From the NCBI GenBank assembly GCA_040754625.1, contig JBFMCF010000096.1, positions 1,651 through 65,650 of the forward strand: a stretch of 64,000 nucleotides of DNA, written 5' to 3'. Below are positions 849-18,363 of the stretch, piece after piece. The position numbers and the translations under genes were made by a program. The notes beneath the pieces were generated by a model, which did not search any database, had not been told where the DNA came from, and worked only from the letters and a program-made list of their open reading frames with translations. This DNA comes from a bacterium (GTDB lineage Bacteria > JACRDZ01 > JAQUKH01). How positions within the stretch are numbered: position 1 is the first letter of the stretch; every line of letters starts with the position of its first letter.

Positions 849-2159
849 TCAAGCGGCTTTCTTTTCTTTCTCAAACATCGCATTTATTGTTCGCCGCCAT
901 GAATAATCAACCGGCATTTTAAGCTGCTGGACAATTTTCTTTTCAGGCTTTACCCGTTGTTTGACTTTTACCGCTTCTTTTTTTACAGGAAAAATCTCTT
1001 TGTATCTCAGTCTTTTCCCTTTACTTGTTATCGAAACTGAACCGTCCACGCGCTCATTTACCGTGACTTTTCTGGCAGGGATACAATCCAGTATCTGATA
1101 GAATTTTTTGTCGTGATTTACTGTGAAGTCATTCCTGACTGCTCTTTCTGTTTTTACGCAAAGAATATCGTCTAAATTGAAACCTTTGGGTATATTACGA
1201 TGTAAATCTGTCTCTTTTTCAGCTTCTACCGAGAATTTTTTGTTGAATTTAGGCATATATTTTCTTAAGAATTCGTTCGCTTCTTCCATTGAACTTATAT
1301 TTTCCAGTCGCATTTCTTTTATCAACCGATCCTGCAGGGTATTAAATAACCTTTCCACTCTTCCTTTTGCCTGCGGGCTGTTTGCGTGTATCACTTTTAT
1401 CTCGAGTCCCTTCAATGCCCGTTCATACTGGCTTAACAGCGCCTGTTTACCCGCCAATTCATCTTCTATGCTTAATTTCCCGGTCGATTTATACGTTGAA
1501 TGCCTGTCTAAATAAACGCTGCGGGGAATCCCGTACCGCTTTATATATCTTTTCATTAAGTCCATCGCTGGTATCGTTCCTTCGTATTCATAAAATCTGC
1601 AAAATATTTCTCCCTTTGCGTCGTCTATAAAGGCCATCAATACCATCTTTGGCCCTCTGCCTTCAAGCCAATCATGATGAGATCCATCCATCTGTATCAT
1701 CTCCCCAAAATATTCTTTCCGTTCCCTCCATTGCCTGTGTTTCCTGCCTTTTCGACGCCCTTTGTATTCTATACCTTCTTTTACAAACCATTTTCTAAGG
1801 GTTTCATCGCTTATTTTTATTTCATCTCTTTCACTTAGTTTTTCCATGCATAACGTCGGCCCAAAACCAACATATTTTTCTCTGCATTTATCAAGTATCT
1901 TTCCTCTCCATTCCCTCGAAAATTCCCTGTTTGACTCTCTGCCCCGTGATTTATGTATTAAACCTTTTTCCCCTTCTTCTTTTACCCTTTGCACTAATCT
2001 TCTTATCTGACGATCGCTTATTTCTATCTTTCCTGCCGCTTCTTTTTGGGTTAGATGTTTTTTCATTACCTCATGTATTATCTTGACCCGTTTTAACTCT
2101 TTTTGGCTCATTATGATATTGTCCTTTCCTGCCATCAATGTCCTCCTTCCTGGAGGCAT
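849..2159 (-). mobile_element. DDE transposase with N-terminal HTH and rve integrase core (IS481/ISNCY-like), apparently intact
   Basis: 436 aa. The N-terminal HTH is KKHLTQKEAAGKIEISDRQIRRLVQRVKEEG. The DDE core has QMDGSHHDW...YLDRHSTY...QAKGRVERLFNTLQDRL. Structured inverted repeats lie just downstream of the stop (756-847), and near-identical 15-20-bp direct motifs (aaaaattttagactt) lie at about 661 and about 2202. Confidence 0.7.
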
Positions 2160-2293: not shown

Positions 2294-3631
2294 CTAATTA
2301 TAAGTTTCTGAGTTTTTGGTAAGCTTACTATTTACAAGAAGTATAATGTATAATCCAAGTCCATTTAGAAACATGTATCTCGCCAAAAATACGCTAAAGA
2401 GATATGACGTTACTATAAAAACTATTGATGTAATGAATACAACAGACGCAAGCCGTGAGTTTTGTCGTGAAAGAAGTCTATAGAAAAATGCATGCACTAC
2501 CAGTCCAAAACAAAAGATAAATATAAAAGACCCAAGCCCTCCGAAATCATATATTAAGCCGCGAAAAATTGTAAAAATATTCGTTTCAAATACATTATCA
2601 AAGTGGCCCGTTTCCATATATATTCCGGGCGAGAAGACCCTGGTAATTCCAAACGTGTTAAAGATAGACGCAAATGTGTAATATCCAAACGAGTTGAAAT
2701 CGTCCAAAAAAGTAGAAACCGATTCCATCCCAACATAAAACGAAAAGAAATCTGAAAAAGCATATATTTCCCCGAGCGTGTATGAAGTTATCGCAAATCT
2801 TAACAGACCAATGGTTCTACTCAAATTACCGGAATCAAAATACCCCTCTCGAGAAATAAATGATATCAATACAAGCGGGAGTAATAAAAATATAATACCG
2901 ATACTTTTCGGCATATAGGAAATTTTAAACAAATTAGTCTTGCCAGCATATATTTTCATTAAAAGAATTGATGCCAAATATAATGAGCTGGCAACAAACA
3001 AAACAAGTTTTGATGATTGTGTAACCATGATGTACAAAGCCGGAGTCAATGAAAGAGCAAGAAAAACCATTTTCCATGAGCGTGTTTTTTGAGAATAAGA
3101 AACAAAACCACCAAGGACTGGTGCTATATAGGTAAAAAACACACTTAAAGTACCTATGATTCCATACTCTAAACCCTTAGTTCCACGCATCGCAGCGAAG
3201 CGACCACTCGTAGCGATGGGATCAAAAAATATTGATTTAAGGTCATACCCGTTCAGAACCATACTGTAAGTTGAAAACACAATCGATAACACAATAGAAA
3301 TATATAAACAGCAGCGAATAAATTTACTGTCCAGTTGAGGTTCACATACAGATTTTTTAGTTTCATTCGCCTTGAATGCGTTCGACCAATTGAATGGTAA
3401 TGCGCTCAGCGAAAATGCCAACGTGCAGAGAAATATATATAAAATAGAAAATGGATTAATAGGTACATTAAATAATATAACTAATGGGAAAAATGTATAT
3501 ACGAACCATGCAAGTGAAAATATAGCGGCAGGGATAATGTACGTACCAACAGCAAGCCTTATAACAAATGCCTGCACAAGCATCATTACGCTGAATACTA
3601 TAGCCAACAGTTTATACTCAAATCCATACAT
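2294..3631 (-). CDS. Polytopic membrane protein, putative oligosaccharide repeat-unit polymerase (Wzy-like)
   Basis: 445 aa, more than 10 predicted hydrophobic spans, no catalytic soluble domains. It is the last gene of the polysaccharide array. Confidence 0.4.
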   Translation of the reverse strand: MYGFEYKLLAIVFSVMMLVQAFVIRLAVGTYIIPAAIFSLAWFVYTFFPLVILFNVPINPFSILYIFLCTLAFSLSALPFNWSNAFKANETKKSVCEPQLDSKFIRCCLYISIVLSIVFSTYSMVLNGYDLKSIFFDPIATSGRFAAMRGTKGLEYGIIGTLSVFFTYIAPVLGGFVSYSQKTRSWKMVFLALSLTPALYIMVTQSSKLVLFVASSLYLASILLMKIYAGKTNLFKISYMPKSIGIIFLLLPLVLISFISREGYFDSGNLSRTIGLLRFAITSYTLGEIYAFSDFFSFYVGMESVSTFLDDFNSFGYYTFASIFNTFGITRVFSPGIYMETGHFDNVFETNIFTIFRGLIYDFGGLGSFIFIFCFGLVVHAFFYRLLSRQNSRLASVVFITSIVFIVTSYLFSVFLARYMFLNGLGLYIILLVNSKLTKNSETYN

Positions 3632-3663
3632 GTTGATTTACCTATCACTAACCGCGATTGTTA

Positions 3664-3797
3664 TATTTCCACAAATCCCGATTTTGCCTGTAACTGGACA
3701 AATAAACCAGGAGCCTTGAAAAATTATAGAACCTGTTTGGGCCAATCAAACGCAAAACGACCCGCATTACCGAGTATATAATTTTAAATTTATTTTC
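3664..3797. repeat. About 135-bp direct repeat, copy 1 (flanks the TA insertion)
   Basis: About 90% identical to 4553..4693 (tatttccacaaatcccgatt[t/c]tgcctgtaactgga[c/t]aaataaacca...cgcattaccgagtatataattttaaattt). Confidence 0.85.
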
Positions 3798-3851
3798 TCC
3801 CGTTTCGCAAGCTGGTTGTTATCCCCCAAATTTACAATCCTTATACTTAAT

Positions 3852-4142
3852 TTACGCCGCCTTAAAACTAATAACCACTTCTTTCCCTAAAGCATGCGCG
3901 ATTTTATGCAATAATTTCAACGAAGGCACCCTTGTATCCGTGCCTTTTTCTAATCTGGCAATTACCGGCTGGCTGGTCCTGGCTTTTTGGGCAAGTTCTT
4001 TTTGGGTTATACCCTCTTTCTGCCTGATTTTCATAACAGCTTTTGCGATTCTATTTTTTATCAATTCGTCTTCGTAATAAATTCTGAATTCTTCATCTTT
4101 TATTTTTTCTTTAATTACGTCATCCAATAAAAGCGTTTTCAT
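3852..4142 (-). CDS. HTH XRE-family antitoxin (HigA-like)
   Basis: 96 aa; GITQKELAQKARTSQPVIARLEKG is a helix-turn-helix. It overlaps the upstream toxin gene by 23 bp, a toxin-first order as in HigBA. Confidence 0.6.
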   Translation of the reverse strand: MKTLLLDDVIKEKIKDEEFRIYYEDELIKNRIAKAVMKIRQKEGITQKELAQKARTSQPVIARLEKGTDTRVPSLKLLHKIAHALGKEVVISFKAA

Positions 4143-4473
4143 TTTTTAATACCTCCATTAAGCGTTTTGCCGCTACTTTTATTTCTTTATCCGGCGCCTT
4201 TTGCGATTGTTTTTTGTAAGAATGCAGCAAAACCATTATATTCTTTTTAATTGTTACATAAAATATTCTATATCCTCCGCCAATACTTCTTATTTTTATT
4301 TCCCAAAGTTTACCATCTATTTGTCGGAATTGAACTCTCGGAGATTCAAGTCCCAATTCCTGTATATTTTCCAAACACCCTAATATTTTTGCCTGATCAG
4401 TTTTTTCTAAACTATTAATAAATTCTAAAACAGGAGATTTCCCATTTGCACTTAAGAAAAATTTTATTTTCAT
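4120..4473 (-). CDS. Type II toxin, RelE/ParE superfamily (HigB/Gp49-like mRNA interferase)
   Basis: 117 aa. Size, the LWEIKIRSIGGGYRIFYV motif and pairing with the downstream XRE antitoxin fit RelE/HigB-family toxins. Confidence 0.5.
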   Translation of the reverse strand: MKIKFFLSANGKSPVLEFINSLEKTDQAKILGCLENIQELGLESPRVQFRQIDGKLWEIKIRSIGGGYRIFYVTIKKNIMVLLHSYKKQSQKAPDKEIKVAAKRLMEVLKNENAFIG

Positions 4474-4548
4474 ATCTTCTATTTTTTCTATATATTATAC
4501 CCATTTGGATATATTTGCAACTCTTATTTTAAAACACATGCAAAATAT

Positions 4549-5778
4549 TTAGTATTTCCACAAATCCCGATTCTGCCTGTAACTGGATAAATAAACCAGA
4601 AGCCTCGAAAAATCATAGAACCTGTTGGGGCCGATCAAACGCAAAATTGTCCGCATTACCGAGTATATAATTTTAAATTTAAATTTATTTTCTGATATCT
4701 TGGAATAGCCGCTTGGTTTATACGCAGATGAATGGCCTTTCTTTTCAAACAGGAAATTCTTCCTCGCGAAGCTGCCGACAACGCCGTTTGAGTCGAACGG
4801 ATCGTGGCCGGGAGGCAGTTCTTTTAAAATACACGCGTAAGCGCGGCGAAGCGTCGGGGATATATATTCCCCGCCGGACATATAATCAAACCCGTATTTT
4901 ATCGATTCCGCTCCTGTTTTTTTCGCGGAAAGCTTTTCCCCGTAGGCAGTGCCCAATTCTAAAAGGTCCGGCCGTTTTACATTTTTTTCGTATAAGGACC
5001 TTTTATTCAAATATTCCGGATCCGCGCCGTCAAAATTACTGAAGTGAAAAAAAATGAGAGGATAAATTTTATTTACAAGATAACGGCCTTCACTATCCTT
5101 TGTTATAAACCTCTCATATGAATTCCACGCGGCAGTATTATAACCTAAATTAAATGAAATATATATATCCTTGAATAAACAAGGCGCGATAGTAACCCAC
5201 TTCTGGTCCGTGGACAACCCGAATTGGGACTCCATAAAACTGAACTGCAGGCACCTGTTAGACCACCACTTTAAAAAAGATACTCCTTCCAGGGAATTTT
5301 TTACCGCGTAAAAACCCAGGTTAAACGAACCAAATCTCATCATAGCCATATCGCTTTCTGAAAAATTGTCGGATTGAGGTGTTGTATAGTGAGGGGTTAA
5401 GACTACTGAATGACCGTCTAAATCACATAAAACAGGTTCAACTGAATCATATAAACATGTATCAGCATCTAAAAATATTACCTTTTTAAATCTTTCAAAT
5501 AATTTTAAGGTAAGATACGGCTTAAGGCTGGTACTCAATTCTATGATATCATATTTAAACGCCAGCTCATAAAAGTCCGGAATGCCGACATCTTCAATCC
5601 AGACTATATTGGCTTCAACAGCAGAAAGATCAATAGTTGCCTTCTTATCAATAAGATATATTATTAACTTTATATTATTAAATTTTAATACCGATTCAGC
5701 AAGCACAAGCGCTTTAGGCATATAAGCTAAATTACAAACTGTAAAAATCGCATATTCCTGTTTTTTATCCGGAATCAC
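4549..5778 (-). CDS. Putative glycosyltransferase (GT-A-like, DxD motif)
   Basis: 409 aa, soluble, with the acidic motif FLDADTCLYDS. It lies in the glycosyltransferase block of the locus. Confidence 0.35.
   Translation of the reverse strand: MIPDKKQEYAIFTVCNLAYMPKALVLAESVLKFNNIKLIIYLIDKKATIDLSAVEANIVWIEDVGIPDFYELAFKYDIIELSTSLKPYLTLKLFERFKKVIFLDADTCLYDSVEPVLCDLDGHSVVLTPHYTTPQSDNFSESDMAMMRFGSFNLGFYAVKNSLEGVSFLKWWSNRCLQFSFMESQFGLSTDQKWVTIAPCLFKDIYISFNLGYNTAAWNSYERFITKDSEGRYLVNKIYPLIFFHFSNFDGADPEYLNKRSLYEKNVKRPDLLELGTAYGEKLSAKKTGAESIKYGFDYMSGGEYISPTLRRAYACILKELPPGHDPFDSNGVVGSFARKNFLFEKKGHSSAYKPSGYSKISENKFKFKIIYSVMRTILRLIGPNRFYDFSRLLVYLSSYRQNRDLWKY
4553..4693. repeat. About 135-bp direct repeat, copy 2 (overlaps the 3' end of the glycosyltransferase gene 4549..5778)
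   Basis: Near-identical to 3664..3797; contains an extra aaattt duplication. Confidence 0.85.
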
Positions 5779-6608
5779 TTTAATATCCTTTTTTTGGGCC
5801 CAAAAACATTAATTACCCTGACCAAAATTTGCCAGTAAATATACCCCGCGAATGAACGAATAACCGCGTAAGAGAATAAGATGTTCCCGCTTTTAATTGA
5901 GGCAAACAGCAATCTTATGCTTGCAAACGTGGTATCAAAAATCCGGTTAAAAGAATACTCGCGTAACAGCCTTTCCTTTCCAAAGATGACATACTTAGCA
6001 TCAGGCTGTTCCGACTCATGGTCAAAACCCGGAGTTTTTGAACACTCGCCGATCCTTAAATTATTATTATTTGATCGAAGGCAAAATTCATAATCCACGC
6101 AATCAACAAAATATTTTTCATTATGCCAGTTTATTCTTTTTAGGTTTTCGAGAAAAAATAAACTCCCGCTGCTTCTTGCCAGCAAAACATCTTTAAACAT
6201 AAATCTGTTCCCGGTAACTAAATCCCCATTTTTTTGTGTACCAAACACAATCGCGCTGTAACCGGATATTAAATTGGTGTTGTTAATATAAAAATCTTCA
6301 ACAAAATCCAAAGTATTACAATCAAATACCGTGTCCTGATCAAAAAATATTAAAGCAGGATATGAATCATAATACGCCTGGGCGCAAACAGATGAAATTC
6401 CAAAACCTAAACCCGCGTTTTTCCCACAAGTAATATATTTGGGAGTATTCGCATTGAATTTCCGGCAAAATTGCCTTATCAATTCATCTTCCGGGCTGTT
6501 ATCAAAAATATATATTGAAAACCCTGATGTTATCGCGCTTTGTAATCTGAGCGTCAGGTCTATATTTGGTTTGTAAGTAACCATTCCTATCGCAATTTTT
6601 CTATTCAC
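5775..6608 (-). CDS. GT2-family glycosyltransferase (WbbL-like rhamnosyltransferase type)
   Basis: IAIGMVTYKPNIDLTLRL...IFDNSPED...FFDQDT is the typical GT2 N-terminal signature. 4-bp overlap with the downstream gene. Confidence 0.55.
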   Translation of the reverse strand: MNRKIAIGMVTYKPNIDLTLRLQSAITSGFSIYIFDNSPEDELIRQFCRKFNANTPKYITCGKNAGLGFGISSVCAQAYYDSYPALIFFDQDTVFDCNTLDFVEDFYINNTNLISGYSAIVFGTQKNGDLVTGNRFMFKDVLLARSSGSLFFLENLKRINWHNEKYFVDCVDYEFCLRSNNNNLRIGECSKTPGFDHESEQPDAKYVIFGKERLLREYSFNRIFDTTFASIRLLFASIKSGNILFSYAVIRSFAGYIYWQILVRVINVFGPKKRILK

Positions 6609-6624
6609 TCTTATTCCCTTTAAA

Positions 6625-7896
6625 TTACAGTGACGTATATTTTTTCGCGTACATAAGTAAAATCATCAAATCGGCACCGGCCCTTATAACCCAGATGACC
6701 GCGGCTCCCGGCAATCCAAAATACTTTAAAAACATAAATAAAAGGGGAAAATAAAATACAAATTCTCCTAAATGTAAAATTGTGGTCATCTTGGCATTTC
6801 CTGCCGCTTGAACCGCGGCATAGGGGATTTGAGCTATGCCATTAAAAAATAATCCAACCGACAGAATAGAGGCAATTTTCCAGGAGTGTTGAGAAAAATC
6901 CCTTCCTAACCAAAGTGTTAAACCCCAATATGACCCGACAGCAATACTCAGGCATATCGCAAACATAGTAAGAGATGTTATTTTCAGGCTCTTTTTATAT
7001 ACGTTCTCAGCTCCCCTTTGATCCGCGCTCATCATAGAAGAAAGCCTTGGAAACAAAGCCGCTGCCAACGCACCGGGAATAATCAGAATACGAATTAAAA
7101 AATCAGAAGGCACAGTGTAATACGCGATTAAACCGGCACCTATCACGGATGAAATAATAAACCTGTCTGCCACCACCATTAAAGGGCTTACAATATTAGA
7201 CAAAGTCATCCAGGCACCAAATGAAAGCAGGTTGGATATCTCTTTCTCACTGCACTTTACCTTAATCCAGTTTATAGGCAACTTTTTATGCACTAAACAT
7301 ATATGCGCGCCTAATATCATAAACCTGGCTGCGATTAAACTGAACACTATCATATTAAGCGATGGTCCAAAAGCCATAACGCTTAAGACAGGTAACCCGA
7401 AATTAGCAAGCCCGAATAACAACCGCAGCAGATTAACTGTTTTAAAGTCTTCGAATGCTTCCAATACGCCTTTTAGCCCTGTTGTGAGAGTAACCATCGG
7501 GATACCAAATGCCACGATCAACAGGGAGTCAACTGTGTTTTGCTGCAGCGCCGCGCTGACATTCAGCCACTTAAAACCAAGCGGATTTGCCGCAACTGCT
7601 AATAAAACACCCCCAAAAGCCCCAGTAACTAACGTAAACAGCATCCCTGTCTTAACTAAACCAGATAATTTCTCAATTTGTTCTAACGCGCGATTAGCCG
7701 CGACTTGTTGAGTAAGCGCGCGGCCAAGCCCGAAATCAAAGAGGCTAAAATATCCAATTAAAGTCCATACAAGCGTAAGAATGCCGAATGCCTCTACTCC
7801 AATTTTATTTAACAAATACGGGATAGTGACAACACCCAGCAGGAATGGAATACCAGCCCCTGATATATTCCACAGCGTATTACGTTTCAATGACAT
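6625..7896 (-). CDS. wzx: Wzx-type polysaccharide flippase (MOP superfamily)
   Basis: 423 aa, about 12 TM. The N-terminus LWNISGAGIPFLLGVVTIPYLLNKIGVEAFGILTLVWTLIGYFSLFDFGLGRALTQ is the classic Wzx/PST start. Confidence 0.7.
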   Translation of the reverse strand: MSLKRNTLWNISGAGIPFLLGVVTIPYLLNKIGVEAFGILTLVWTLIGYFSLFDFGLGRALTQQVAANRALEQIEKLSGLVKTGMLFTLVTGAFGGVLLAVAANPLGFKWLNVSAALQQNTVDSLLIVAFGIPMVTLTTGLKGVLEAFEDFKTVNLLRLLFGLANFGLPVLSVMAFGPSLNMIVFSLIAARFMILGAHICLVHKKLPINWIKVKCSEKEISNLLSFGAWMTLSNIVSPLMVVADRFIISSVIGAGLIAYYTVPSDFLIRILIIPGALAAALFPRLSSMMSADQRGAENVYKKSLKITSLTMFAICLSIAVGSYWGLTLWLGRDFSQHSWKIASILSVGLFFNGIAQIPYAAVQAAGNAKMTTILHLGEFVFYFPLLFMFLKYFGLPGAAVIWVIRAGADLMILLMYAKKYTSL

Positions 7897-8018: not shown

Positions 8019-8119
8019 GCCATCGGGGATTTTTTTTATTTCCCGAAGGCTCACATTTGTTTTAGACCCTTCGTCGCTTTGCTCCTCAGGGTGAGTGGTC
8101 GAAACACACCGACCCCTCA
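8019..8119. repeat. MITE-like imperfect palindromic element, copy A (half element)
   Basis: About 85% identical over about 60 bp to the reverse complement of 39859..39920 (tgaggggtcgg.gtgtttcgaccactca.cctgagga..aa...gacgaagg.tctaaaa). It provides the last 11 codons and the stop of ORF 8086..9399. Confidence 0.6.
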
Positions 8120-9399
8120 TTTAATTCCTCTTGTTTTTTAACAATATTTTCAATAATAAATATTAAAGCGATATTAAACCATAAAAACATTGAAATTTTT
8201 TCGTTTTTATTATGGTTAGCAAAAAATATTGTAGTCTGTGAACAAAAAAAGTATCCAACCAAACTCAGCATTATGCCATCAAGTAAATTCTTTAGTTTAA
8301 TATCTTCTATTTTATTCCTCAACTCAAAACACTTTCTAAAAGAAATAACAATAATTATCAAAAAACTAACCAGGCCAATTATTCCGTTTTCCGGAGCGAT
8401 ATGCAAAAATATATTATGCGCGTGCCAGCCGCGCGGCCATTCTTCTTTCACCTCAACTCCTTTATACTTCTGAACAACAACATCATATGTGCCCGGTCCT
8501 GTTCCAAAAAATGGAAAATCTTTAATCATTTTTAAAGAGCTTCCCCATGTAGGGAGCCTGTCTCCAATACTGTCTTGTTTAAAATTTGCAATAGATATAA
8601 TTCTCGTTTTAATACTCGCGGGTAATATTAAATATAATAATACGACAGTCAATAAAATTAAAAGGAAAAATTTCCAATTTTTTAACACCCTGTTGTTAAG
8701 AATAATTAAAAATAAAAAAACGCCCGTAAAACCTATCCAGCTGCCGCGGGAATAACTAATTATTAAACCCATAATTAAAATAATTAATCCCAGTATAAAA
8801 AAAATCGAGGCGGCTGTTTTTTTACGGTAATTCATAAGAAAACTGATTAAAATAGGTATCAGGAGCACTGTCACGGCCCCAAATTCAGCACGGCCGCCAA
8901 AACTATAATAATTACGATTCCAGTAACTTAATTGCATTTTTATATGGTGATAAATACCACGGCTGACTGAATAAAGAACAGCTATTATTAAAATAAACAG
9001 TATTGCCTCCAGTTTGTTTTTATTATCAATATTATTTATTAATAAATAAGCCATGCCTATGTGAAGAAGAAAATCCCGAAAATATAAAAAACTGACCTTT
9101 GGCTGGGAAGAAAAAATTGAGGCGGATATAAATGTTATTAAATAAATTAAGACAGGAAAATCTAAATCGGTCTTTTGAAATTTAATTTCTTTATCAATAG
9201 CTTTTCTAATAAACCAGAATAATATTGCGGCAACTAAAATATTTTTCAAACTATGAAGGCTTATCATTTTACTGCCGACAGCAAAATCAAAGCCAATCCC
9301 GCCCATTACACTTATAAGCAATATGATTAAACTTAAAACCAAAATATCAAGAAATGTTTTAAAATTAATTGAAGGCATCATCATTAAAATACCCAACAA
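8086..9399 (-). CDS. O-antigen ligase/polymerase family membrane protein (Wzy_C domain), paralog A
   Basis: 437 aa polytopic. SRGSWIGF motif in a large periplasmic loop; G..PGT..D; WHAHNIFL. Close paralog of 14582..15853. Confidence 0.6.
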   Translation of the reverse strand: MLGILMMMPSINFKTFLDILVLSLIILLISVMGGIGFDFAVGSKMISLHSLKNILVAAILFWFIRKAIDKEIKFQKTDLDFPVLIYLITFISASIFSSQPKVSFLYFRDFLLHIGMAYLLINNIDNKNKLEAILFILIIAVLYSVSRGIYHHIKMQLSYWNRNYYSFGGRAEFGAVTVLLIPILISFLMNYRKKTAASIFFILGLIILIMGLIISYSRGSWIGFTGVFLFLIILNNRVLKNWKFFLLILLTVVLLYLILPASIKTRIISIANFKQDSIGDRLPTWGSSLKMIKDFPFFGTGPGTYDVVVQKYKGVEVKEEWPRGWHAHNIFLHIAPENGIIGLVSFLIIIVISFRKCFELRNKIEDIKLKNLLDGIMLSLVGYFFCSQTTIFFANHNKNEKISMFLWFNIALIFIIENIVKKQEELNEGSVCFDHSP

Positions 9400-9402
9400 A
9401 TT

Positions 9403-10182
9403 CTATCTACCCGGTTTTGTCTTTTCCCAATTTTCAGCCAAAAGAGCATAAGATATGCCGGCCATTAATGCCACAAAACACGAAAATACAATTATTGGTA
9501 CTTTTTTTGGAGAAACCGGATATTTTGATTTAACAGGGCCGTCAATTAATTTAAACTCTTTATTAACAACTAATTGTGTTTCCAATTGAAATTTTTGAAA
9601 TAACAAGTCTCTAATCTGCACCTTATCATCGGGATAAGCCAGGGGCGATACATTTTCCCTTTTAGCTAACGCGTTTTTATCCGCGCTAAGTTTGGTTTTT
9701 TCAATCAGGTTTTCAACTTGATAAATCTGATTTCTTATTAAATCAGTTTGTCTATTATAATTTGAATTCCCATATTCAATATAAACACTGACTATTTCCT
9801 TGCATAAAGAATATGCAATATCATTATCTTTTAACCTGACCTTTAACATAAATAAATTACTTTCTTTAATATTTTCTAATAAAATCATTTTTTTTATTTC
9901 ATGTTCTTGTGGAATTCTTAAGCCTATTTTTTCAAAAATCGGATTTAAAAAAAGTCCCGACCTTATTAGTGTTGACGCTTCCGGATAAGTTATAATCGGC
10001 ACATTTATATAACCATTTTGTATAGTTGCTTTTACCTCATAAGTTTTGGGAATAATAAATATTATAATACTCGCTAAAACCATTGCAACAAGAGCTGTAC
10101 TTAAAATAAAAGTTTTTCGTTTATTAATAATCTGAATAAAATCTATAAGGCCGATTTCTTCATTATATTTTGGATTTAACAT
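9403..10182 (-). CDS. Wzz-like chain-length determinant (polysaccharide co-polymerase, short form)
   Basis: 259 aa with an N-terminal TM (FILSTALVAMVLASIIIFIIP), a coiled-coil periplasmic segment and a C-terminal TM (VPIIVFSCFVALMAGISYALL). Confidence 0.5.
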   Translation of the reverse strand: MLNPKYNEEIGLIDFIQIINKRKTFILSTALVAMVLASIIIFIIPKTYEVKATIQNGYINVPIITYPEASTLIRSGLFLNPIFEKIGLRIPQEHEIKKMILLENIKESNLFMLKVRLKDNDIAYSLCKEIVSVYIEYGNSNYNRQTDLIRNQIYQVENLIEKTKLSADKNALAKRENVSPLAYPDDKVQIRDLLFQKFQLETQLVVNKEFKLIDGPVKSKYPVSPKKVPIIVFSCFVALMAGISYALLAENWEKTKPGR

Positions 10183-10259
10183 TTATTAATTACCTCCTTT
10201 TTCAAAAGTCACATCTTGCAAGTTTTAGATTTATACTTATAATAACCAATTTTTGTTTT

Positions 10260-11324
10260 TTATTTACTTATATAATATTCGTAAGTCTTTTTGATTCCAT
10301 CCGACAAGCTAATTTCCGGTTTCCACCCTAAAGATTTAATTTTTGAACTATCAAGAAGTTTTCTTGGAATACCGTCAGGTTTTGAAAAATCAAATTTTAT
10401 TTCTCCGACAAAACCCACTATATCTTTTATCAACTTTGCTATATCTTTTATTTTTATTTCCTCACCGCTCCCGGTGTTAATAAATTCACCTATATTTTTA
10501 TATTCATAATTTTCCATCAAAAATAAACATGCATCAGCCATATCATCCACATATAAAAATTCCCTATAAGGTTCACCGCTGCCCCAAAGAGTAACATATT
10601 CCGGAGTTATACCCAGTTTTTCCAGGCTTAAATCATCAACGGCATCTGAATTCAGCCTGAAGTTAAACCCTATAGGATAAGTTTCTATGTCTTTTTTTAC
10701 CTCGTTATACTTTTTTTGGCTCAAAAGTTTTGCGAGATGAAACTTTCTTATCAAAGCCGCCGGGAGATGAGCTGTTTCTAAATTATAATTATCTCCCCGG
10801 CCATAAAGATTTGTAGGCATACCGGAAATAAAATTTGTCCCATATTGCTCATTGTAATATTGGCATAATTTTATCGCGGCTATTTTTGCTATCGCATACG
10901 GTTCATTAGTCGGTTCCAAAATCCCTATAAGGAGATGCTCTTCTTTCATCGGTTGAGGCGCGTTTCTTGGATAAATACAAGATGAACCAAGATTAAGAAG
11001 TTTTCCCACACCGTATTTATAAGCGGAATTTATAACATTGGCACCTATTATAATATTATCATATATAAACTCCGCTTTATATGTGCTGTTTGCAAGAATT
11101 CCGCCGACTTTTGCTGCTGCCAGGAACACATACTCGGGTTTTTCTTTTTCAAAAAAATCTTCAACTTCAGCCTGCTTTCTCAAATCAAGTTCTTTGCTTG
11201 TTTTGACAACTACATTTGTATATCCTGAGGCTTGAACTTTTCTTAGTAAAGCAGACCCTACTAATCCTTTATGTCCTGCGATATAAATTTTTGAACTTTT
11301 GTCCATCTGTTTACTTTTTCCCAT
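10260..11324 (-). CDS. fcl: GDP-L-fucose synthase (GDP-4-keto-6-deoxy-D-mannose 3,5-epimerase/4-reductase)
   Basis: KIYIAGHKGLVGSALLRKV...FLAAAKVGGI..N..YPA.F...N......N...A......KLL.LGSSCIYP: full Fcl/WcaG signature. Confidence 0.8.
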   Translation of the reverse strand: MGKSKQMDKSSKIYIAGHKGLVGSALLRKVQASGYTNVVVKTSKELDLRKQAEVEDFFEKEKPEYVFLAAAKVGGILANSTYKAEFIYDNIIIGANVINSAYKYGVGKLLNLGSSCIYPRNAPQPMKEEHLLIGILEPTNEPYAIAKIAAIKLCQYYNEQYGTNFISGMPTNLYGRGDNYNLETAHLPAALIRKFHLAKLLSQKKYNEVKKDIETYPIGFNFRLNSDAVDDLSLEKLGITPEYVTLWGSGEPYREFLYVDDMADACLFLMENYEYKNIGEFINTGSGEEIKIKDIAKLIKDIVGFVGEIKFDFSKPDGIPRKLLDSSKIKSLGWKPEISLSDGIKKTYEYYISK

Positions 11325-11865
11325 TTTTTTGCCGTTTTCTTACAGTGTGCTTAAATTTCAACACAGCAAAATTCAATTCGATAGTTGTCTCATTCTCGTT
11401 AGACACCAAACTATCATCCAGAATTTCGGCAATAATCCCGCCGCTTTTTTGAAGCAAGTTCTGTTTTTGGCTCTCGTCATGTACGTTTGATATCGCTTTA
11501 ATATTTCGTGTAAGGTTTCTAATTTTCGCGAATGTCTCAATAATGGCTATTGTCGTTTGGGCAGCTTGCTGACTCTTTAATATCGTTGCCAGCATATACA
11601 AGCCTTTTTCAGAAAAAGCTTTGGGCAAAACTCTTATCTTTGAAAATTTTGCGGTGGAAAATTTCCACCGCAAACCTTCAAACTCCGTTCTATTAAGCTC
11701 AAGAATATAACCATCAGGAAATTTGCCGGGATTATTTTTGACTGCTTTGTTTATATCCCTTGTTTCAACTCTATAAAGTTCTGCTATATCAGTATCAAGA
11801 ATAACTTTTTGGTTTCTCAATTCAAGTATTTTGCTTTCAATTTTTTCAAACGCAACTATATCCAT
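11311..11865 (-). CDS. ORF6N (KilA-N-like) domain protein, phage/mobile-element-associated DNA-binding protein
   Basis: 184 aa. N-terminal ILELRNQKVILDTDIAELYRVETRDINKAVKNNPGKFPDGY resembles the ORF6N domain of phage antirepressors. It overlaps the fcl start by 14 nt. Confidence 0.45.
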   Translation of the reverse strand: MDIVAFEKIESKILELRNQKVILDTDIAELYRVETRDINKAVKNNPGKFPDGYILELNRTEFEGLRWKFSTAKFSKIRVLPKAFSEKGLYMLATILKSQQAAQTTIAIIETFAKIRNLTRNIKAISNVHDESQKQNLLQKSGGIIAEILDDSLVSNENETTIELNFAVLKFKHTVRKRQKNGKK

Positions 11866-11880
11866 TTAAACCTCCAAATA

Positions 11881-13071
11881 TTAATGGCCTTTTACCGCTG
11901 CGCAATAAATTTTTTCATAAAAGGCAAAATCATGATTTGTATATTCAAACCCTTTTTTCTTTGAAATTTCTATCCCTTCACCCGGCGCATCCAGCCCGAT
12001 TAATCTTAAATCATAATCAACCATTATTTTTATCAGTTCTTGAAAATTTACCCTCGCCTGCCATTTTAATTTCTTTTTTGCCTTTGTCACATCTGCTTTG
12101 AGATAATCCACTTCTGTAGGCCTGAAATAACGCGGGTCTATTTCAATTAAAACGTCTCCCTTTTTAATGCTGGAGGTTGGAGGCTGGAGGCTGGAGGTTA
12201 AGGAATGAATGATACCTTTTTCGTTTACACCTTTTCCTTCCCATGCGATTTCAATACCGGCGTATTTAAAAGCAGTCTCAACAAATTCACGGACTTTATA
12301 ACTTTCCCCCGTACCAACGACATAATCATCCGGTTCAGACTGCTGAAGCATAAGCCACATCATTTCTACATATTCAGGGGCAAATCCCCAGTCACGTTTG
12401 GCATCGAGATTTCCCAGATAAAGCTTATCCTGCTTTCCTGCCAATATATTTGCTAAAGCTCTTGTGATTTTTCTTGTTACAAAAGTTTCTCCGCGCCGCG
12501 GGCTTTCGTGATTAAAAAGAATACCGTTGCAGGCAAACATATTATATCCGTCACGGTAATTTTTAGCCATCCAGTAAGAATACAATTTTGCGCAGGCGTA
12601 AGGACTTCTTGGTTCAAAAGGGGTATTTTCAGACTGGGGCGGTTTTGCAGAACCAAATATCTCCGATGACGAGGCTTGATAGAATTTTGTTTGGACGCCG
12701 CTTCTTCTTACCGCTTCCAGCAATCTTACCGTCCCCAGAGCAGTAACATTACTGGTATATTCCGGAATATCAAAACTGACACGTACATGGCTTTGAGCAC
12801 CCAGATGGTATATTTCCTGAGGTTTAATACTATAAATTAAACTGTTTATCTGCTCGGCATCTGATAAATCCCCGTAATGCAGAAAAAGCTTTGCACCGGG
12901 GGAATGAATATCGACATAAATATGATCAATCCTGCCTGTATTAAAGGTACTGGCTCGGCGTATAATACCGTGTACTTCATATCCCCTGGACAAGAGAAAT
13001 TCGGCAAGATAAGAACCATCCTGGCCGGTTATTCCCGTAATTAACGCTTTTTTCGCATTTTTACGCGGCAT
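11881..13071 (-). CDS. gmd: GDP-mannose 4,6-dehydratase
   Basis: [28 protein letters not shown]...[28 protein letters not shown]: canonical Gmd. Carries an unusual loop insert encoded by a 7-bp x4 tandem repeat. Confidence 0.9.
12170..12197. repeat. Heptanucleotide tandem repeat (YTGGAGG x4) inside the gmd coding sequence
   Basis: ctggagg ttggagg ctggagg ctggagg; encodes SSLQPPTSS in a Gmd surface loop. Confidence 0.8.
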
Positions 13072-13145
13072 TTATTGAAATCTCCTTTTCTATTTTTAAA
13101 TTATTTATTATAACATTATTATTATTTTATACAAAATATTTTATG

Positions 13146-14585
13146 CTACCTTCCATATATATCATCAATTCTCTCGATATCATCTTCCCCTAAATATTCA
13201 CCGTTCTGGACCTCTATTATTTCTAAAGATGTTTCCCCTTGGTTTTCCAGCCGGTGAACGGCAGTTTTTGGAATATAGGCGGATTCGTTTTCACGGACAA
13301 TCAATTCTTTTTCTCCAATCGTAACTTTTGCAATTCCTTTTATAACCACCCAGTGTTCTGAACGATGTTTATGCCTCTGGAGGCTTAATTTAGCATTTTT
13401 ATTTACGATTATTCTCTTAATTTTATACCGGCCACCTTCCTCAAGCACAGTATAACTTCCCCAGGGCCTGTAAGTACAAGTATGTTCTACCGCTTCTTTG
13501 CGGTTATCTTTTTCTAATTTTCCAATAACATCCCTGACTTTCTGGGAACATCCCTTTTTTGCTATAAGCGTGGCATCAGCAGTATCAACCACAAGACAAT
13601 CTTCCAAACCTACCGTGGCTATTAATCTTTTGTCACCAATAATAAGACAATTTTTTGTGTCTGTAGTTAAAATATCACCTATCTTCGCGTTACCCGATTC
13701 ATCTTTTTCGAGTATTTCAAAAAAAGAATCCCATGACCCGATATCGTTCCAATATAAATCCATTGGAATGACCGCGACTTTGTCCGATTTTTCCATCACG
13801 GCGTAATCAATTGAAAGAGAAGGCATTCTACCAAATTCTTTCAGCATATCATCAAAATTTTTATCGAGAAATTCACCAATTTGAGGGGCATGTTTATTTA
13901 ATTCTTTAATAGCTGTCCCAATGGTAAAGGCAAACATTCCCGAGTTCCAGTAATAATCCCCGGAATCAACATATTTCTGCGCGGTCTCTCTATCCGGCTT
14001 CTCAACAAACTTTTCCACCTTTAAATAATTAATTTCTTCTGCTTTCTTCCTTCTGCCTTCTTCCTTCAGTCTTCTGACTTTAATATATCCATACCCCGTT
14101 TCAGGTTTCAAAGGTTTTATACCAAAAGTTGCCATATAGTTATCTTTAGCAACCTCTTCCGCATATTTCATATATTTTTTAAACATATCTTCATCTTCAT
14201 TTTTTATCATCTGGTCTGATGGCAAAACATAAATTAACTCATCCAGCCCGCAGCCAAGTTTTTCAATACAGTATTTCACACCTAATGCTATTGCAGGAGC
14301 GGTATTTTTACTCATAGGCTCAAGAATTATATGAGCAGGCGTATTCGCCTGCTCATCCTGAGTACAACGAAGGATCTCAGAAATATCGGATTTCACATGG
14401 AATTGATATTTATCGTTAGTTATAAAAATAATATCTTTTAATGATACCAAACCTGAAAGCCTTGCTATGGTCTGCTGCAAAAAAGATTTACCATTGTTTA
14501 TTTTTAAAAACTGTTTCGGGTAATTGCGCCTGCTCATCGGCCATAACCGCGTCCCTGAGCCGCCCGCCAAAATAAATGTTTTCAC
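13146..14585 (-). CDS. manC: Mannose-1-phosphate guanylyltransferase / mannose-6-phosphate isomerase (bifunctional, cupin C-terminus)
   Basis: LAGGSGTRLWPMSRRNYPKQFL at the N-terminus; C-terminal cupin HRLEN.GE....IEVQNGEYLGEDDIERIDDIYGR. Confidence 0.85.
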   Translation of the reverse strand: MKTFILAGGSGTRLWPMSRRNYPKQFLKINNGKSFLQQTIARLSGLVSLKDIIFITNDKYQFHVKSDISEILRCTQDEQANTPAHIILEPMSKNTAPAIALGVKYCIEKLGCGLDELIYVLPSDQMIKNEDEDMFKKYMKYAEEVAKDNYMATFGIKPLKPETGYGYIKVRRLKEEGRRKKAEEINYLKVEKFVEKPDRETAQKYVDSGDYYWNSGMFAFTIGTAIKELNKHAPQIGEFLDKNFDDMLKEFGRMPSLSIDYAVMEKSDKVAVIPMDLYWNDIGSWDSFFEILEKDESGNAKIGDILTTDTKNCLIIGDKRLIATVGLEDCLVVDTADATLIAKKGCSQKVRDVIGKLEKDNRKEAVEHTCTYRPWGSYTVLEEGGRYKIKRIIVNKNAKLSLQRHKHRSEHWVVIKGIAKVTIGEKELIVRENESAYIPKTAVHRLENQGETSLEIIEVQNGEYLGEDDIERIDDIYGR

Positions 14586-15853
14586 ACCGCCCTTCCTTTT
14601 TCATCTTGCTTTTTGGCAATATTTTCAATAATAAATATTAAAGCTATGTCAAACCATAAAAACATGGATATCTTTTCATTTTTGTTATGATTAGCGAAAA
14701 ATACTGTTGTTTGAGAGCAAACCAGATAGCCCCCTAAACTTGCCATGGTTCCATTTAACAGATTTTTAAGATGAATATCATTAATTTTTTCTTGTAATTC
14801 AAAATACTTTTTGAAGGAAATAAAAATAATCAACAAAAAACTGAATAATCCAATTAACCCATTCTCTGAAGTAACATGCAAAAAGATATTATGCGCGTGC
14901 CAGCCACGCGTCCAATCTTCTTTAGCATCATTCCCTTTATACTGCTGGGCAATAACATCATATGTCCCCGGGCCTATTCCCAAAAAAGGAAAATCTTTAA
15001 TCATAGCTAAAGAACTTTTCCATGCAGAAATTCTATCTCCTGTAGTATTTTTAAAATCAGCTATGGAAATCATTCTCTGCTTTAAACTGGAGGGTATGAT
15101 TAAAAATAAAAAAACAAGTGTTAGAAAAGTTAAAACAAAAAATCTCCAATTTTTTAATATATGCACATACATCAAAATAAAAAATAAAATAACAGCGATA
15201 AATCCTATCCAGCTCCCGCGTGAATAACTAACTACCATCCCTGTAATTAAAATAATTAATCCTGACACAAAAAAGATTGAAAATGTCAAATTCTTCCTAT
15301 AATTAAGAAGAAATCCAGCTAAAACCGGTATAGTAAGCACAGCAGCAGCTCCAAATTCAGCACGGCCACCAAAGCTATAATAATTTCCATCATCATAGCC
15401 AAGTCTTGAATTTACATGTTGAATAGTCCCTCTGGCTGATGTATAAATAACAGAAATTAAAAAAATAAACAATATTGCTTCCAGTTTATTTTTATTATCA
15501 ATATTATTTATTAATAAAAAAACCATACTTGTATAAAGAATAAAATCCCGAAAATATAAAAAACTGACTTTTGGCTGTGAAGAAAAAACCACAGCAATTA
15601 AAAATGTTATTAAATAAATTAAAACAGGCAAATTCAAGCTGGTTTTAATAAAGCTGCTTTCCTTATAAATGATTTTTTTAATAATCCAAAATAAAATTGT
15701 TGCTATTAAAACATTTTTTAAGCTGTGCAGGCTTACCATTCTATTACCAACAGCGAAGTCAAATCCAACACCGCCCATTATACTAACGAGTAATGGAATT
15801 AAACTTAAAATTAGAACATCAAGAAAGGTTTTAAAAGCAATTGGAGATATCAT
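14582..15853 (-). CDS. O-antigen ligase/polymerase family membrane protein (Wzy_C domain), paralog B
   Basis: 423 aa with the same motifs as paralog A (SRGSWIGF, WHAHNIFLH, ISMFLWF.IALIFIIENI). Internal DNA stretches are about 90% identical to 8086..9399. Confidence 0.6.
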   Translation of the reverse strand: MISPIAFKTFLDVLILSLIPLLVSIMGGVGFDFAVGNRMVSLHSLKNVLIATILFWIIKKIIYKESSFIKTSLNLPVLIYLITFLIAVVFSSQPKVSFLYFRDFILYTSMVFLLINNIDNKNKLEAILFIFLISVIYTSARGTIQHVNSRLGYDDGNYYSFGGRAEFGAAAVLTIPVLAGFLLNYRKNLTFSIFFVSGLIILITGMVVSYSRGSWIGFIAVILFFILMYVHILKNWRFFVLTFLTLVFLFLIIPSSLKQRMISIADFKNTTGDRISAWKSSLAMIKDFPFLGIGPGTYDVIAQQYKGNDAKEDWTRGWHAHNIFLHVTSENGLIGLFSFLLIIFISFKKYFELQEKINDIHLKNLLNGTMASLGGYLVCSQTTVFFANHNKNEKISMFLWFDIALIFIIENIAKKQDEKGRAV

Positions 15854-15883
15854 TATTTTACTATTTATGACTAAGCGGATTTA

Positions 15884-17722
15884 TTAGTCACCATTCGATG
15901 AAATTATATTTTGCATACTTTGAATAATACTGTTTTCATCCATTATATTCGCAAGTTTTTGCAGATTTTTAACCTGAGTGCGCAATTTTATAGTATCAAA
16001 CAACTCAGATTGACTGATATAAATTTTGTTATGTTTTGTAACTCTATCTTTTTCTTTATCTAAAAGAAGCTCTTCAGAAAGCTTCTCACCGGGCCTTAAC
16101 CCGATGAATTTAAAAGAAATATCTTTATCAAGAACTAAACCTGATAATGCAACCAGATTCTTTGCTATATCCACTAGCTTTATCTGTTCACCCATATCCA
16201 GGATAAAAAGTTCCCCGCCCTTGCCTATCGCCCCGGCCTGTAACACAAGAAGAGCCGCCTCTTTTACACTCATGAAATATCTTTCAGTGTCTTTATGAGT
16301 TATAGTTATCGGCCCGCCTGATTCTATCTGTTTTTTAAATAAAGGAACCACGCTCCCGTTCGAACCGATTACATTTCCAAAACGTACCGCCATAAATTTT
16401 GTCTTACTGTTTCTAGCCTTCGACTGTAAAATCATTTCCGCTATCCGCTTGCTCATTCCCATGACATTAATGGGATTTACCGCCTTGTCCGTTGAAATAG
16501 CAACAAATCTTTCAACTTTATAGTGACTAGCCGCATAGATAAGATTGCGGCTTCCGATTATATTATTTTTAACCGCGGCTGTTGGATTTTCTTCCATTAA
16601 CGGCACATGTTTATGAGCGGCGGCGTGAAAAACAATCTGGGGAGAATAGCGGGAAAAAGTTTGTTTTAATAAACCGATATCACTGATATCTCCTATAACC
16701 GTTTTTATTTTTATATGAGGATATTTTGTTTTAAATTCCACCAATAAAAAATAAACATCATTTTCATTATGGTCAAAAAGTATAATCTTTTTTGGCGAAA
16801 AATTTACTATCTGCCTGCAGAGTTCAGATCCTATCGACCCGCCGGCCCCGGTAACAAGAATTTTCTTATCAAAAATATAATTGCCTATTTCTGTTTCATC
16901 TATTTTAAACGTATCTCTTCCTAGAAGATCTTCCGGCCTTACTTCTCTCGGTTTTATTTCTAATTCCCCGCTTAAAAATTTTTGGAATTTAGGGATAATT
17001 TTAATTTTCACTTTTGATACAGGGCAATGAGAAATTATTTCCCTAATCACTTCACCTCTTGCTGAAGGAATTGCCAAAATTATCTCATCAATATCATAAT
17101 CTTCTGCCACTTTAGAAATATGCTCTTTCCCTCCTAAAATTTTTTTGCCATAAATAGTCCCGTGATGTTTTACTTTATCATCATCAACGAAACCAATAAT
17201 TTCTCCGCTGCCCGGATTATTGCGATATTCTTTTAACGCTAAAATTCCCGCTTCTCCCGCTCCTACGATAAGGATTTTTTTTTGTTTTTTTGAGTTATCT
17301 GCCCGGTACCTTTCCCTGAACAAACGGACAAAAAAACGTATCCCCGCGACCATACCAGTACAAATGGCAAAATCAATAATAAAAACAGACCGGGGAAAAT
17401 CTTTCAGACCATAAATAAAAACTTCGCCTAAAATAAAAACAACAACCGCTAAAGCGTTTGCTTTAAGTATCTGCGCCAAATCACTCATACTGACATACCG
17501 CCAGAGGCCTTCAAATACTCCAAAATAATAGAAAATAAAAAATTTAATTATAATCAATAGCGGAAGAGTTTCCCAAAAAACACTTAAGTATGGTTCGGAC
17601 AGGCTAAAATCGAAACGTGTGTAAAAAGAAAAATAATAAGCCCATGTTATTAAAATCAGGTGGGTAATTATTATAAATAACCTGCGATATTTCAAAATAA
17701 ATTCTTTATATTTTGTTATCAT
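15884..17722 (-). CDS. Membrane-anchored UDP-GlcNAc 4,6-dehydratase (CapD/WbpM/PglF family)
   Basis: 612 aa. N-terminal TM segments followed by two Rossmann regions (ILIVGAGEAG; ILVTGAGGSIGSEL). Domain order is typical of CapD. Confidence 0.8.
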   Translation of the reverse strand: MITKYKEFILKYRRLFIIITHLILITWAYYFSFYTRFDFSLSEPYLSVFWETLPLLIIIKFFIFYYFGVFEGLWRYVSMSDLAQILKANALAVVVFILGEVFIYGLKDFPRSVFIIDFAICTGMVAGIRFFVRLFRERYRADNSKKQKKILIVGAGEAGILALKEYRNNPGSGEIIGFVDDDKVKHHGTIYGKKILGGKEHISKVAEDYDIDEIILAIPSARGEVIREIISHCPVSKVKIKIIPKFQKFLSGELEIKPREVRPEDLLGRDTFKIDETEIGNYIFDKKILVTGAGGSIGSELCRQIVNFSPKKIILFDHNENDVYFLLVEFKTKYPHIKIKTVIGDISDIGLLKQTFSRYSPQIVFHAAAHKHVPLMEENPTAAVKNNIIGSRNLIYAASHYKVERFVAISTDKAVNPINVMGMSKRIAEMILQSKARNSKTKFMAVRFGNVIGSNGSVVPLFKKQIESGGPITITHKDTERYFMSVKEAALLVLQAGAIGKGGELFILDMGEQIKLVDIAKNLVALSGLVLDKDISFKFIGLRPGEKLSEELLLDKEKDRVTKHNKIYISQSELFDTIKLRTQVKNLQKLANIMDENSIIQSMQNIISSNGD

Positions 17723-17802
17723 AATATTAATATTCCTGAATAATAAATTATTATATAATATTAATTTAAAATAGGCAATTGTTTAAATCGAATTATATTT
17801 TA

Positions 17803-18363
17803 TCAGTGTTTAATACCTTCTTTATTAACAACCTTTATAACAGTCATGAATAATATTTTCAGATCAAAAATAAAGGAATTGTTTTTAAGATAAAACTCAT
17901 CAAATTCCACTTTTACCGGTATCGGTAATTCATCTCTTCCATTTATCTGCGCCCAGCCTGTAATACCCGGTTTAAGTTTATGGATATTTTTTTCTGTTCT
18001 TAATCCAATGAGGTCATATTGATTAAATAACGCCGGGCGCGGGCCAACAAAGCTCATATCCCCTCTTATCACATTCAATAACTGCGGTAATTCATCAAGG
18101 CTTGTTTTTCTCAAAAATTTTCCGACTGAAGTTAAATAAATATCTGGATCTTTCAAAAGATGCGTCGCTACCGGAGGCGTATTTATTTTCATCGTCCGGA
18201 ATTTAGCCATTTTAAAAATATTATTGTTAACTCCAATTCTGTCGGACCAATATAAAACCGGGCCAATAGAAGTAAGTTTTATTATTATACTGATAAATAA
18301 CATTGGAACAAAAAATATTATTAAAAACAAACAGGCAAAAAAAATATCAAAAATGCGTTTCAT
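17803..18363 (-). CDS. Initiating phosphoglycosyltransferase, small bacterial sugar transferase (PglC/WbaP-C/Cap5M type)
   Basis: 186 aa with a single N-terminal TM, then GP.LY...R.G.....F...KFRTM......P.....D...[25 protein letters not shown]. Confidence 0.8.

Follow-up and report, generated by a model that had tools for sequence, protein, structure and literature searches.

Two Wzy_C-family genes, designated here paralogs A and B, lie on either side of a manC-gmd-ORF6N-fcl-wzz segment within a glycan biosynthesis locus of a bacterial metagenome-assembled genome (MAG). The locus was analyzed in a window of 64,000 nt (contig JBFMCF010000096.1 of assembly GCA_040754625.1, positions 1,651 to 65,650; coordinates below refer to this window). 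The data indicate that A and B are probably old paralogs of a lineage-restricted WaaL-like subfamily, situated at the junction of independently travelling blocks in a mosaic locus. The main value of this result is a correction. The initial annotation had described the two genes as near-identical repeats forming a hotspot for cassette gain and loss, and neither label, recombination hotspot or glycan switch, should be retained for the locus. Such a feature arises in the ordinary course of glycan-locus evolution, and what is left over is a narrow, previously uncharacterized WaaL-like subfamily that is duplicated in one MAG.

Sequence divergence and age of the two Wzy_C genes

A and B, which share strand and direct orientation, are homologous over their full length at a register offset of 6,472-6,475 bp, confirming the earlier description of direct repeats approximately 6.5 kb apart; the gene content reported between them was likewise borne out by profile matches. 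Their paralogy is far beyond chance (blastn, 74.9% identity over 1,287 nt, E = 0). The copies are nevertheless not near-identical. In place of the long stretches of about 90% identity previously reported, a global nucleotide alignment contained 949 identical columns out of 1,279 (74.2%), amino acid (aa) identity was 66.9%, and the longest exact run was 30 bp, one of only five runs of at least 20 bp (which include two of 28 and 27 bp). Windows of 200 nt had a mean identity of 73-74% and a maximum of 85%, and identity at codon positions 1, 2, and 3 was 74.5%, 86.5%, and 59.3%, respectively. Divergence was evenly spread between regions of the protein, with 66% identity in transmembrane (TM) segments and 72% in periplasmic regions. 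Homology was confined to the open reading frames (ORFs; 8105-9385 vs 14583-15857), and comparison of the sequences flanking A with those flanking B detected no shared sequence. The stop codon of B overlaps the start of manC by 4 nt, while the start of A is placed at TTG 9399 by the ORF and at ATG 9384 in the source annotation, the latter giving a protein of 432 aa (P0002).

By the Nei-Gojobori method, A and B differ by 0.214 nonsynonymous (dN) and 1.07 synonymous (dS, saturated) substitutions per site, for an omega of approximately 0.2. At sites where the two copies differ, the orthologs agree with A in 65 cases and with B in 47, and therefore neither copy is degenerate. Judged from these substitution patterns, purifying selection maintains the function of both A and B.

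The subfamily to which the paralogs belong is narrow. Among 5.8 billion protein clusters, it comprises the two window proteins and five relatives with 59-65% identity to B, beyond which identity falls to 31% or less, mostly 24-26%. A scan of GTDB for relatives recovered only the L001 contig, a scan of Joint Genome Institute (JGI) metagenomes recovered only homologs of 24-29% identity, and exact-protein look-ups of B and gmd returned no match. Within the available DNA, the relatives carry a single Wzy_C gene and lack the segment consisting of gmd, fcl, wzz, and a second copy. The gene order is radical SAM (rSAM)-Wzy_C-manC-rmlA-rmlC in contigs L001 and L002, epimerase-Wzy_C-manC in L004, and Bac_transf-ORF-CapD-Wzy_C followed by a different NTP_transferase gene in L003; in L013, Wzy_C is followed by non-coding DNA. 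The upstream neighbors of B are shared with L003 (Bac_transf, 80.6% aa identity; CapD, 88.8%) and its downstream neighbor manC with L001 and L004 (78-81% aa identity), whereas A is syntenic with no ortholog, either upstream or downstream. B is therefore the positional ortholog and A the extra copy.

At the amino acid level A is 68% identical to P0005, 67% to B, and 66% to P0003, and in a codon-aligned five-gene alignment its nucleotide identity is 76.0% to the L003 ortholog and 73.9% to B. A comparison of paralogs and orthologs in a bootstrapped neighbor-joining tree joined A and B at only 63-73%, with an internal branch of 0.011-0.016 and terminal branches of approximately 0.14. Neighboring genes provide a calibration for these distances: CapD of the window and of L003 (90% identity) are separated by a dS of 0.75, below that of A and B, and manC of the window and of L001 (83% aa identity) by a dS of 0.90. 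Given that A is as near to the orthologs of other organisms as it is to B, and given this calibration, the A/B split, on sequence distance, does not postdate the divergence of the host lineages sampled. A split of this age is too old for the layout to be the fresh scar of a cassette insertion accompanied by gene duplication, as had been proposed. Moreover, with a dS of 1.07 and no homogenized tract specific to the pair, there is no concerted evolution, which implies that the copies have long gone without sequence exchange. GC composition, as a signal of foreign origin, dipped only over membrane-protein genes and displayed no step at the borders of the segment.

The region singled out in the initial annotation as approximately 90% identical (9000-9160, aligned with 15472-15632) is in fact 85.1% identical, and only its best ~100 nt (9013-9113) reach 89%. 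This tract, the single best between A and B, encodes FSSQPKVSFLYFRDF...LLINNIDNKNKLEAILFI, which are invariant motifs rich in F, N, K, I, D, and Y. Third-position identity and same-codon frequency are raised across codons ~87-146. Permutation scans of synonymous sites between A and B gave marginal p values of 0.04-0.08, and a permutation test on the longest exact run gave p = 0.019. The same-codon frequency at identical A/B residues is 0.64, compared to 0.50 expected at saturation. However, the best 102-nt window of every ortholog pair in the five-gene alignment is 84-91% identical, and identity within the patch is 85% for A-B, 83% for A-L003, and 81% for B-L003, with the L003 ortholog deriving from another sample. 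In this AT-rich genome, each of the six residues abundant in these motifs effectively uses one codon. Since the patch is similarly conserved in the L003 ortholog and all ortholog pairs reach comparable windows, the high-identity tracts are best explained, at the sequence level, by protein constraint combined with AT-biased two-fold codons and not by A/B-specific exchange. Gene conversion specific to A and B was accordingly rejected despite the permutation results.

Predicted function of the paralogs

Hydropathy predicts approximately 10 TM segments, and an AlphaFold model of A (predicted local distance difference test [pLDDT] 76.9, predicted template modeling score [pTM] 0.81) displays 12 long helices with a large loop before helix 10. 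A Foldseek search of the PDB with this model returned a single match at E <= 0.001, the O-antigen ligase WaaL (7TPG_B, E = 9e-6, TM-score 0.51/0.54); the next fold matches were the related shape, elongation, division, and sporulation (SEDS) proteins FtsW and RodA. WaaL 7TPG is also the best sequence match in the PDB (E = 3.6e-5), with GDR(I/L)..W aligned to GVRLKIW and GWHAHN aligned to EHAHN. Residues R213, R276, H321, H323, and N324 are present in both copies and are invariant or nearly so down to homologs of 21-26% identity. We take R213, R276, H321, and H323 to correspond to the ligase catalytic set R215, R288, and H337-338 of Escherichia coli WaaL.

Profile searches placed A and B within the broader family. 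PF04932 was the sole Pfam family at E <= 1e-3 in either protein. Scores fell short of the cutoffs for RfaL (NF012031; A 46.1 bits against a cutoff of 277, B no match), for the exosortase-associated O-glycosylation ligase (TIGR03097; 79.1 and 85.5 bits for A and B, respectively, cutoff 188), and for IctB (TIGR00947; 75.7 and 88.7 bits, cutoff 366), and neither protein matched the polymerase model TIGR04370. The PglL/PglS O-oligosaccharyltransferases are marked by PglL_A and Wzy_C_2 domains beside Wzy_C (PMC12645811), and both of these domains are absent from A and B. The subfamily is 56-73% identical at the amino acid level across loci that carry different sugar genes. Given this conservation, the presence of a separate true Wzy in the locus, and the WaaL-like fold and catalytic residues, we lean toward reading A and B as transferases of the ligase type whose donor or acceptor preferences have diverged.

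In the proposed history, B would represent the ancestral state, syntenic within Bac_transf-CapD-B-manC, and A, closely linked to a short Wzz-like gene, would be an addition. For A there are two candidate origins, an ancient duplication in situ and acquisition from a sister lineage, which the star-like phylogeny cannot separate. Both copies would act as ligase-type enzymes that move a finished undecaprenyl-diphosphate-linked glycan to an acceptor, either lipid A-core or protein, and the divergence between them could concern the donor or the acceptor, for instance a fucosylated versus a non-fucosylated glycan. If it is true that the copies serve different glycans or acceptors, they would make a compact natural setting in which to examine how ligase-type C-fold glycosyltransferases (GT-C) select donors and acceptors. 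A more elaborate scenario, which we consider improbable, is that an uncultivated diderm lineage possesses a private WaaL-like subfamily with two specialized copies, one for a fucose-free glycan and the other for a fucosylated, chain-length-regulated glycan, possibly with different acceptors (lipid A-core and protein), and that rare homeologous crossovers could toggle the second glycan off.

Alternative explanations

The most serious competitor, although unlikely, is that A and B are Wzy-type repeat-unit polymerases for two linkages or two polymers. Pfam Wzy_C does include polymerases, the wzz-A-wzx arrangement is typical of Wzx/Wzy assembly genes, and the presence of two flippases in the locus might indicate more than one polymer. 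However, a genuine Wzy matching TIGR04370, the model to which neither A nor B has a match, already accompanies wzx and two glycosyltransferase (GT) genes, and this block occurs elsewhere without Wzy_C. Polymerases are also usually hypervariable between loci, in contrast with the conservation of this subfamily across different sugar genes, and the only significant structural match is to a ligase. We regard as less credible still the idea that one copy is a decaying redundant duplicate or that the duplication is an artefact of metagenome assembly. The sequence does come from a MAG and has been seen once, and duplicated genes are often short-lived, but both ORFs are intact and under the constraint described above, family-invariant residues are kept in both, the orthologs side with each copy at a substantial number of sites, and the copies are 26% diverged, each with unique flanks and with homology that stops at the ORF borders. 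Furthermore, assemblers collapse repeats and do not create diverged full-length copies.

Very improbable, too, if slightly less so than decay or artefact, is the proposal that A and B are an active substrate for homologous recombination, with crossovers deleting, inserting, or duplicating the GDP-fucose and chain-length segment so as to form a glycan-switching hotspot. The geometry is suitable: the copies are direct repeats at a spacing of 6,472 bp, a crossover between them would remove manC-gmd-ORF6N-fcl-wzz and leave a chimeric Wzy_C gene, the longest-run permutation test is nominally in favor, and the surrounding locus is clearly mosaic with mobile-element debris. Exact runs of 30, 28, and 27 bp between the copies come close to the MEPS (minimal efficient processing segment) of at most 30 bp that PMC8918686 cites from Shen and Huang. 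In Bacillus subtilis, on the other hand, the MEPS exceeds 40 bp, and recombination falls log-linearly with divergence, by approximately 45,000-fold at 20.8% (PMC4824099). With 26% divergence and a longest run of 30 bp, the A/B repeats are at or below the minimal identity that recombination needs, and they lie outside the range of near-identical repeats, which share over about 90-95% identity with tracts well above the MEPS. By this analysis, a crossover between A and B is possible but should be orders of magnitude rarer than one between true repeats. Neither concerted evolution nor a pair-specific conversion tract, either of which would indicate exchange, was found, and the saturated dS implies that no A/B exchange has been fixed as conversion. 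The excised genes also do not amount to a self-contained module: since wzx, the two GT genes, and wzy lie beyond A, an A x B deletion would strand them without their presumed fucose supply. No chimeric A/B protein was present among the 5.8 billion protein clusters, in which the organism is represented once, giving this search little power, and the genome and metagenome scans yielded no related contig with a deletion or insertion allele, a test without power for an organism present only once. What stands of the hotspot claim is that the region varies between lineages, the relatives having a single Wzy_C gene; A x B recombination is not the source of this variability.

Several points weigh against the interpretation of A and B as old, non-exchanging, ligase-type paralogs. 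The longest exact runs are near an E. coli-type MEPS, and rare crossovers are conceivable; a very old, short conversion also remains conceivable, as the longest-run test is nominally significant. There are only five close relatives, mostly on short contigs, and single-copy status is firm for ~8-10 kb on either side in L001. With regard to function, A and B are below every NCBIfam equivalog cutoff tried, and the subfunctionalization of the two copies is purely inferential. Wzy_C spans WaaL, some polymerases, and O-oligosaccharyltransferases (PMC12645811), and sequence and fold cannot settle the choice between ligase and polymerase.

The surrounding glycan locus and known systems

All genes of the window are on the minus strand, forming one co-directional glycan locus of more than 55 kb (Table 1). 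A scan for promoters and terminators delimiting transcription units gave counts not above those of shuffled sequences.

Table 1. Coordinates of the paralogs and of other features in the window
Feature	Coordinates	Strand	Match	Remark
Wzy_C paralog A	8086..9399	-	PF04932, 83.0 bits (cutoff 31.7)	Extra copy
Wzy_C paralog B, 423 aa (P0001)	14582..15853	-	PF04932, 88.7 bits (cutoff 31.7)	Positional ortholog
Best-conserved A/B tract	9013..9113 (partner 15485-15585)	-	89% identity	
IS110/IS116-type fragment	12-287	-	PF02371, 24.5 bits	
rve_3 integrase-core fragment	320-583	-	PF13683, 43.2 bits	
ISNCY transposase	849-2159	-	NF033594, 409.9 bits (cutoff 250)	Intact
True Wzy repeat-unit polymerase, 445 aa	2294..3631	-	TIGR04370, 61.2 bits (cutoff 40)	~10 TM
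Gp49/HigB-like toxin and HTH_3 antitoxin	3852..4473	-	PF05973, 73.7 bits; PF01381, 49.8 bits	
Two GT-like genes, 277 and 409 aa	4549..6608	-	Weak TIGR01556, PF03407, GT8	
wzx flippase, downstream block	6625..7896	-	PF01943, 86.2 bits	
Short Wzz-like polysaccharide co-polymerase, 259 aa	9403..10182	-	PF02706, 28.4 bits (cutoff 25.5)	2 TM
fcl (GDP-L-fucose synthase-like)	10260..11324	-	NF047922, 440.8 bits (cutoff 500)	Below cutoff
ORF6N-domain gene	11311..11865	-	PF10543, 95.8 bits	
gmd (GDP-mannose 4,6-dehydratase)	11881..13071	-	TIGR01472, 558.6 bits (cutoff 415)	
manC (bifunctional mannose-1-phosphate guanylyltransferase/phosphomannose isomerase, GMP/PMI)	13146..14585	-	TIGR01479, 538.6 bits (cutoff 373)	
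CapD/WbpM-like dehydratase and small Bac_transf initiating transferase	15884..18363	-	PF02719, 392.6 bits; PF02397, 204.4 bits	
Wzy_C-like polytopic ORF, 489 aa	31293-32762	-	tblastn, 24% to C-terminal part of A, E = 1e-6	Third, very distant; ~9 TM
First flippase	53920-55437	-		
Wza-like exporter	58979-60589	-		

Between the paralogs, the Wzz-like protein matches Wzz at residues 8-55, and a GNVR match at residues 209-248 (23.9 bits) is below its cutoff. The Fcl homolog is 354 aa long compared to a model of 308 positions, and its match is split between residues 10-204 and about 248-337, which suggests from sequence that it carries an insertion of ~40 aa. The ORF6N gene lies inside the gmd-fcl operon, 15 nt away from gmd and overlapping fcl by 14 nt. 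It belongs to an unusually conserved family, with thousands of ~180-aa homologs, 65-83% identical, in phyla not related to one another (Nitrospirae, Desulfonatronum, Elusimicrobia), and its relatives elsewhere adjoin toxin-antitoxin (TA) genes and sit at the edges of polysaccharide clusters. The gene looks like a promiscuous hitchhiker.

A 22-nt sequence located at the 3' ends of both paralogs (8158-8179 and 14633-14654, plus strand) recurs inverted, with one mismatch, within the ORF6N gene (11485-11506, minus strand), giving three matches compared to 0.01 expected. On one strand the sequence specifies the WF(N/D)IALIF conserved among all Wzy_C orthologs, and on the other the RNIKA(I/M)SN conserved among unrelated ORF6N genes; the match was therefore attributed to the coincidence of two conserved coding sequences and rejected as a meaningful repeat.

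Upstream of B, the locus contains many glycosyltransferase genes, FnlB-like, FnlC-like, and hisH/hisF-like genes, and GT4, epimerase, Bac_transf, and CapD genes. The hisH/hisF-like genes beside those for FnlB-like and FnlC-like proteins suggest an acetamidino-N-acetylfucosamine (acetamidino-FucNAc)-type sugar. Two asparagine-synthase-like amidotransferases, a CDP-glycerol glycerophosphotransferase, and a B12-binding rSAM enzyme are also encoded in this part of the locus (15884-60589, minus strand). The distant Wzy_C-like ORF at 31293-32762, for which no Pfam or NCBIfam match was found, may serve the upstream part as its polymerase or ligase, and the locus probably makes more than one glycan.

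Downstream of A, the block wzx-GT277-GT409-wzy is collinear with contig L018 (598-5606), with amino acid identities of 62.6%, 57.5%, 72.6%, and 57.7%, respectively, and the block (window 2294-7896) is collinear with L019 (1-11389)/L020 as well, identities across L018 and L019, two metagenomic contigs unrelated to each other, ranging from 40 to 73%. Its Wzy, named 'O-antigen polymerase' in the source MAG, has homologs of 41-57% identity in many phyla. In L018 and L019/L020 the block is accompanied by fnl genes (fnlA/B/C) and GT4, and in L019/L020 by CapD, while no Wzy_C gene was found within 10-20 kb of it. From these comparisons, wzx-GT-GT-wzy seems to move between lineages as one block. A TA pair sits between GT409 and wzy and is absent from L018, where the corresponding gap measures 193 bp compared to 917 bp here. 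This pair, the ORF6N gene between gmd and fcl, and the insertion sequence (IS) remnants at the end of the locus are hallmarks of an accessory region. An interpretation of everything downstream of manC as one 'module 2' with its own ligase was considered and then softened, because the genes with which wzx-GT-GT-wzy normally travels in L018 and L019 (fnl, GT4, and CapD) lie upstream of B in the window.

Among characterized proteins, WaaL of Cupriavidus metallidurans (7TPG) resembles A and B in its Wzy_C domain, 12-helix fold as predicted here, large periplasmic loop, aligned motifs, and location of the gene within a glycan locus, but sequence identity is only ~14% and the window has two copies in one locus. 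With the enterobacterial RfaL model, the score is well short of the equivalog cutoff (46 against 277 bits). Acinetobacter carries a pilin-specific and a general O-oligosaccharyltransferase in one genome, according to Harding et al. 2015 as cited in PMC12645811, and specificity is governed mainly by the reducing-end sugar (PMC12645811). The Acinetobacter pair is similar to A and B in that two functional ligase-like paralogs of the superfamily coexist, with theirs dividing the work by acceptor or donor. Unlike A and B, the Acinetobacter enzymes are highly diverged from one another and are not encoded at a spacing of 6.5 kb within a single biosynthetic locus; next to the window genes there is no gene for a pilin or another acceptor, and the PglL_A and Wzy_C_2 domains of the PglL/PglS types are those lacking from A and B.

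Known cases of deletion and amplification of surface-polysaccharide loci between direct repeats, as in the IS1016-flanked cap locus of Haemophilus influenzae, involve long, identical or near-identical repeats. In common with that locus, polysaccharide genes in the window are flanked by direct repeats, but those of the window are 74% identical with a longest exact run of 30 bp. Further parallels are the mosaic Wzx/Wzy-dependent O-antigen and capsule loci exemplified by the Pseudomonas aeruginosa O11-type and E. coli fnl-containing clusters. To our knowledge, classical Wzx/Wzy loci do not contain two ligase-like genes inside the cluster, and the window locus differs further in that its operons include both an ORF6N gene and a TA pair. 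It nonetheless shares with them fnlB/fnlC-like, GT4, epimerase, initiating transferase, and CapD/WbpM-like genes, the wzx-GT-GT-wzy block, shuffled gene blocks, and IS flanks, and it exemplifies the assembly of a glycan locus from independently travelling blocks, namely Bac_transf-CapD, Wzy_C-manC, gmd-fcl, and wzx-GT-GT-wzy, with TA, ORF6N, and IS elements as hitchhikers.

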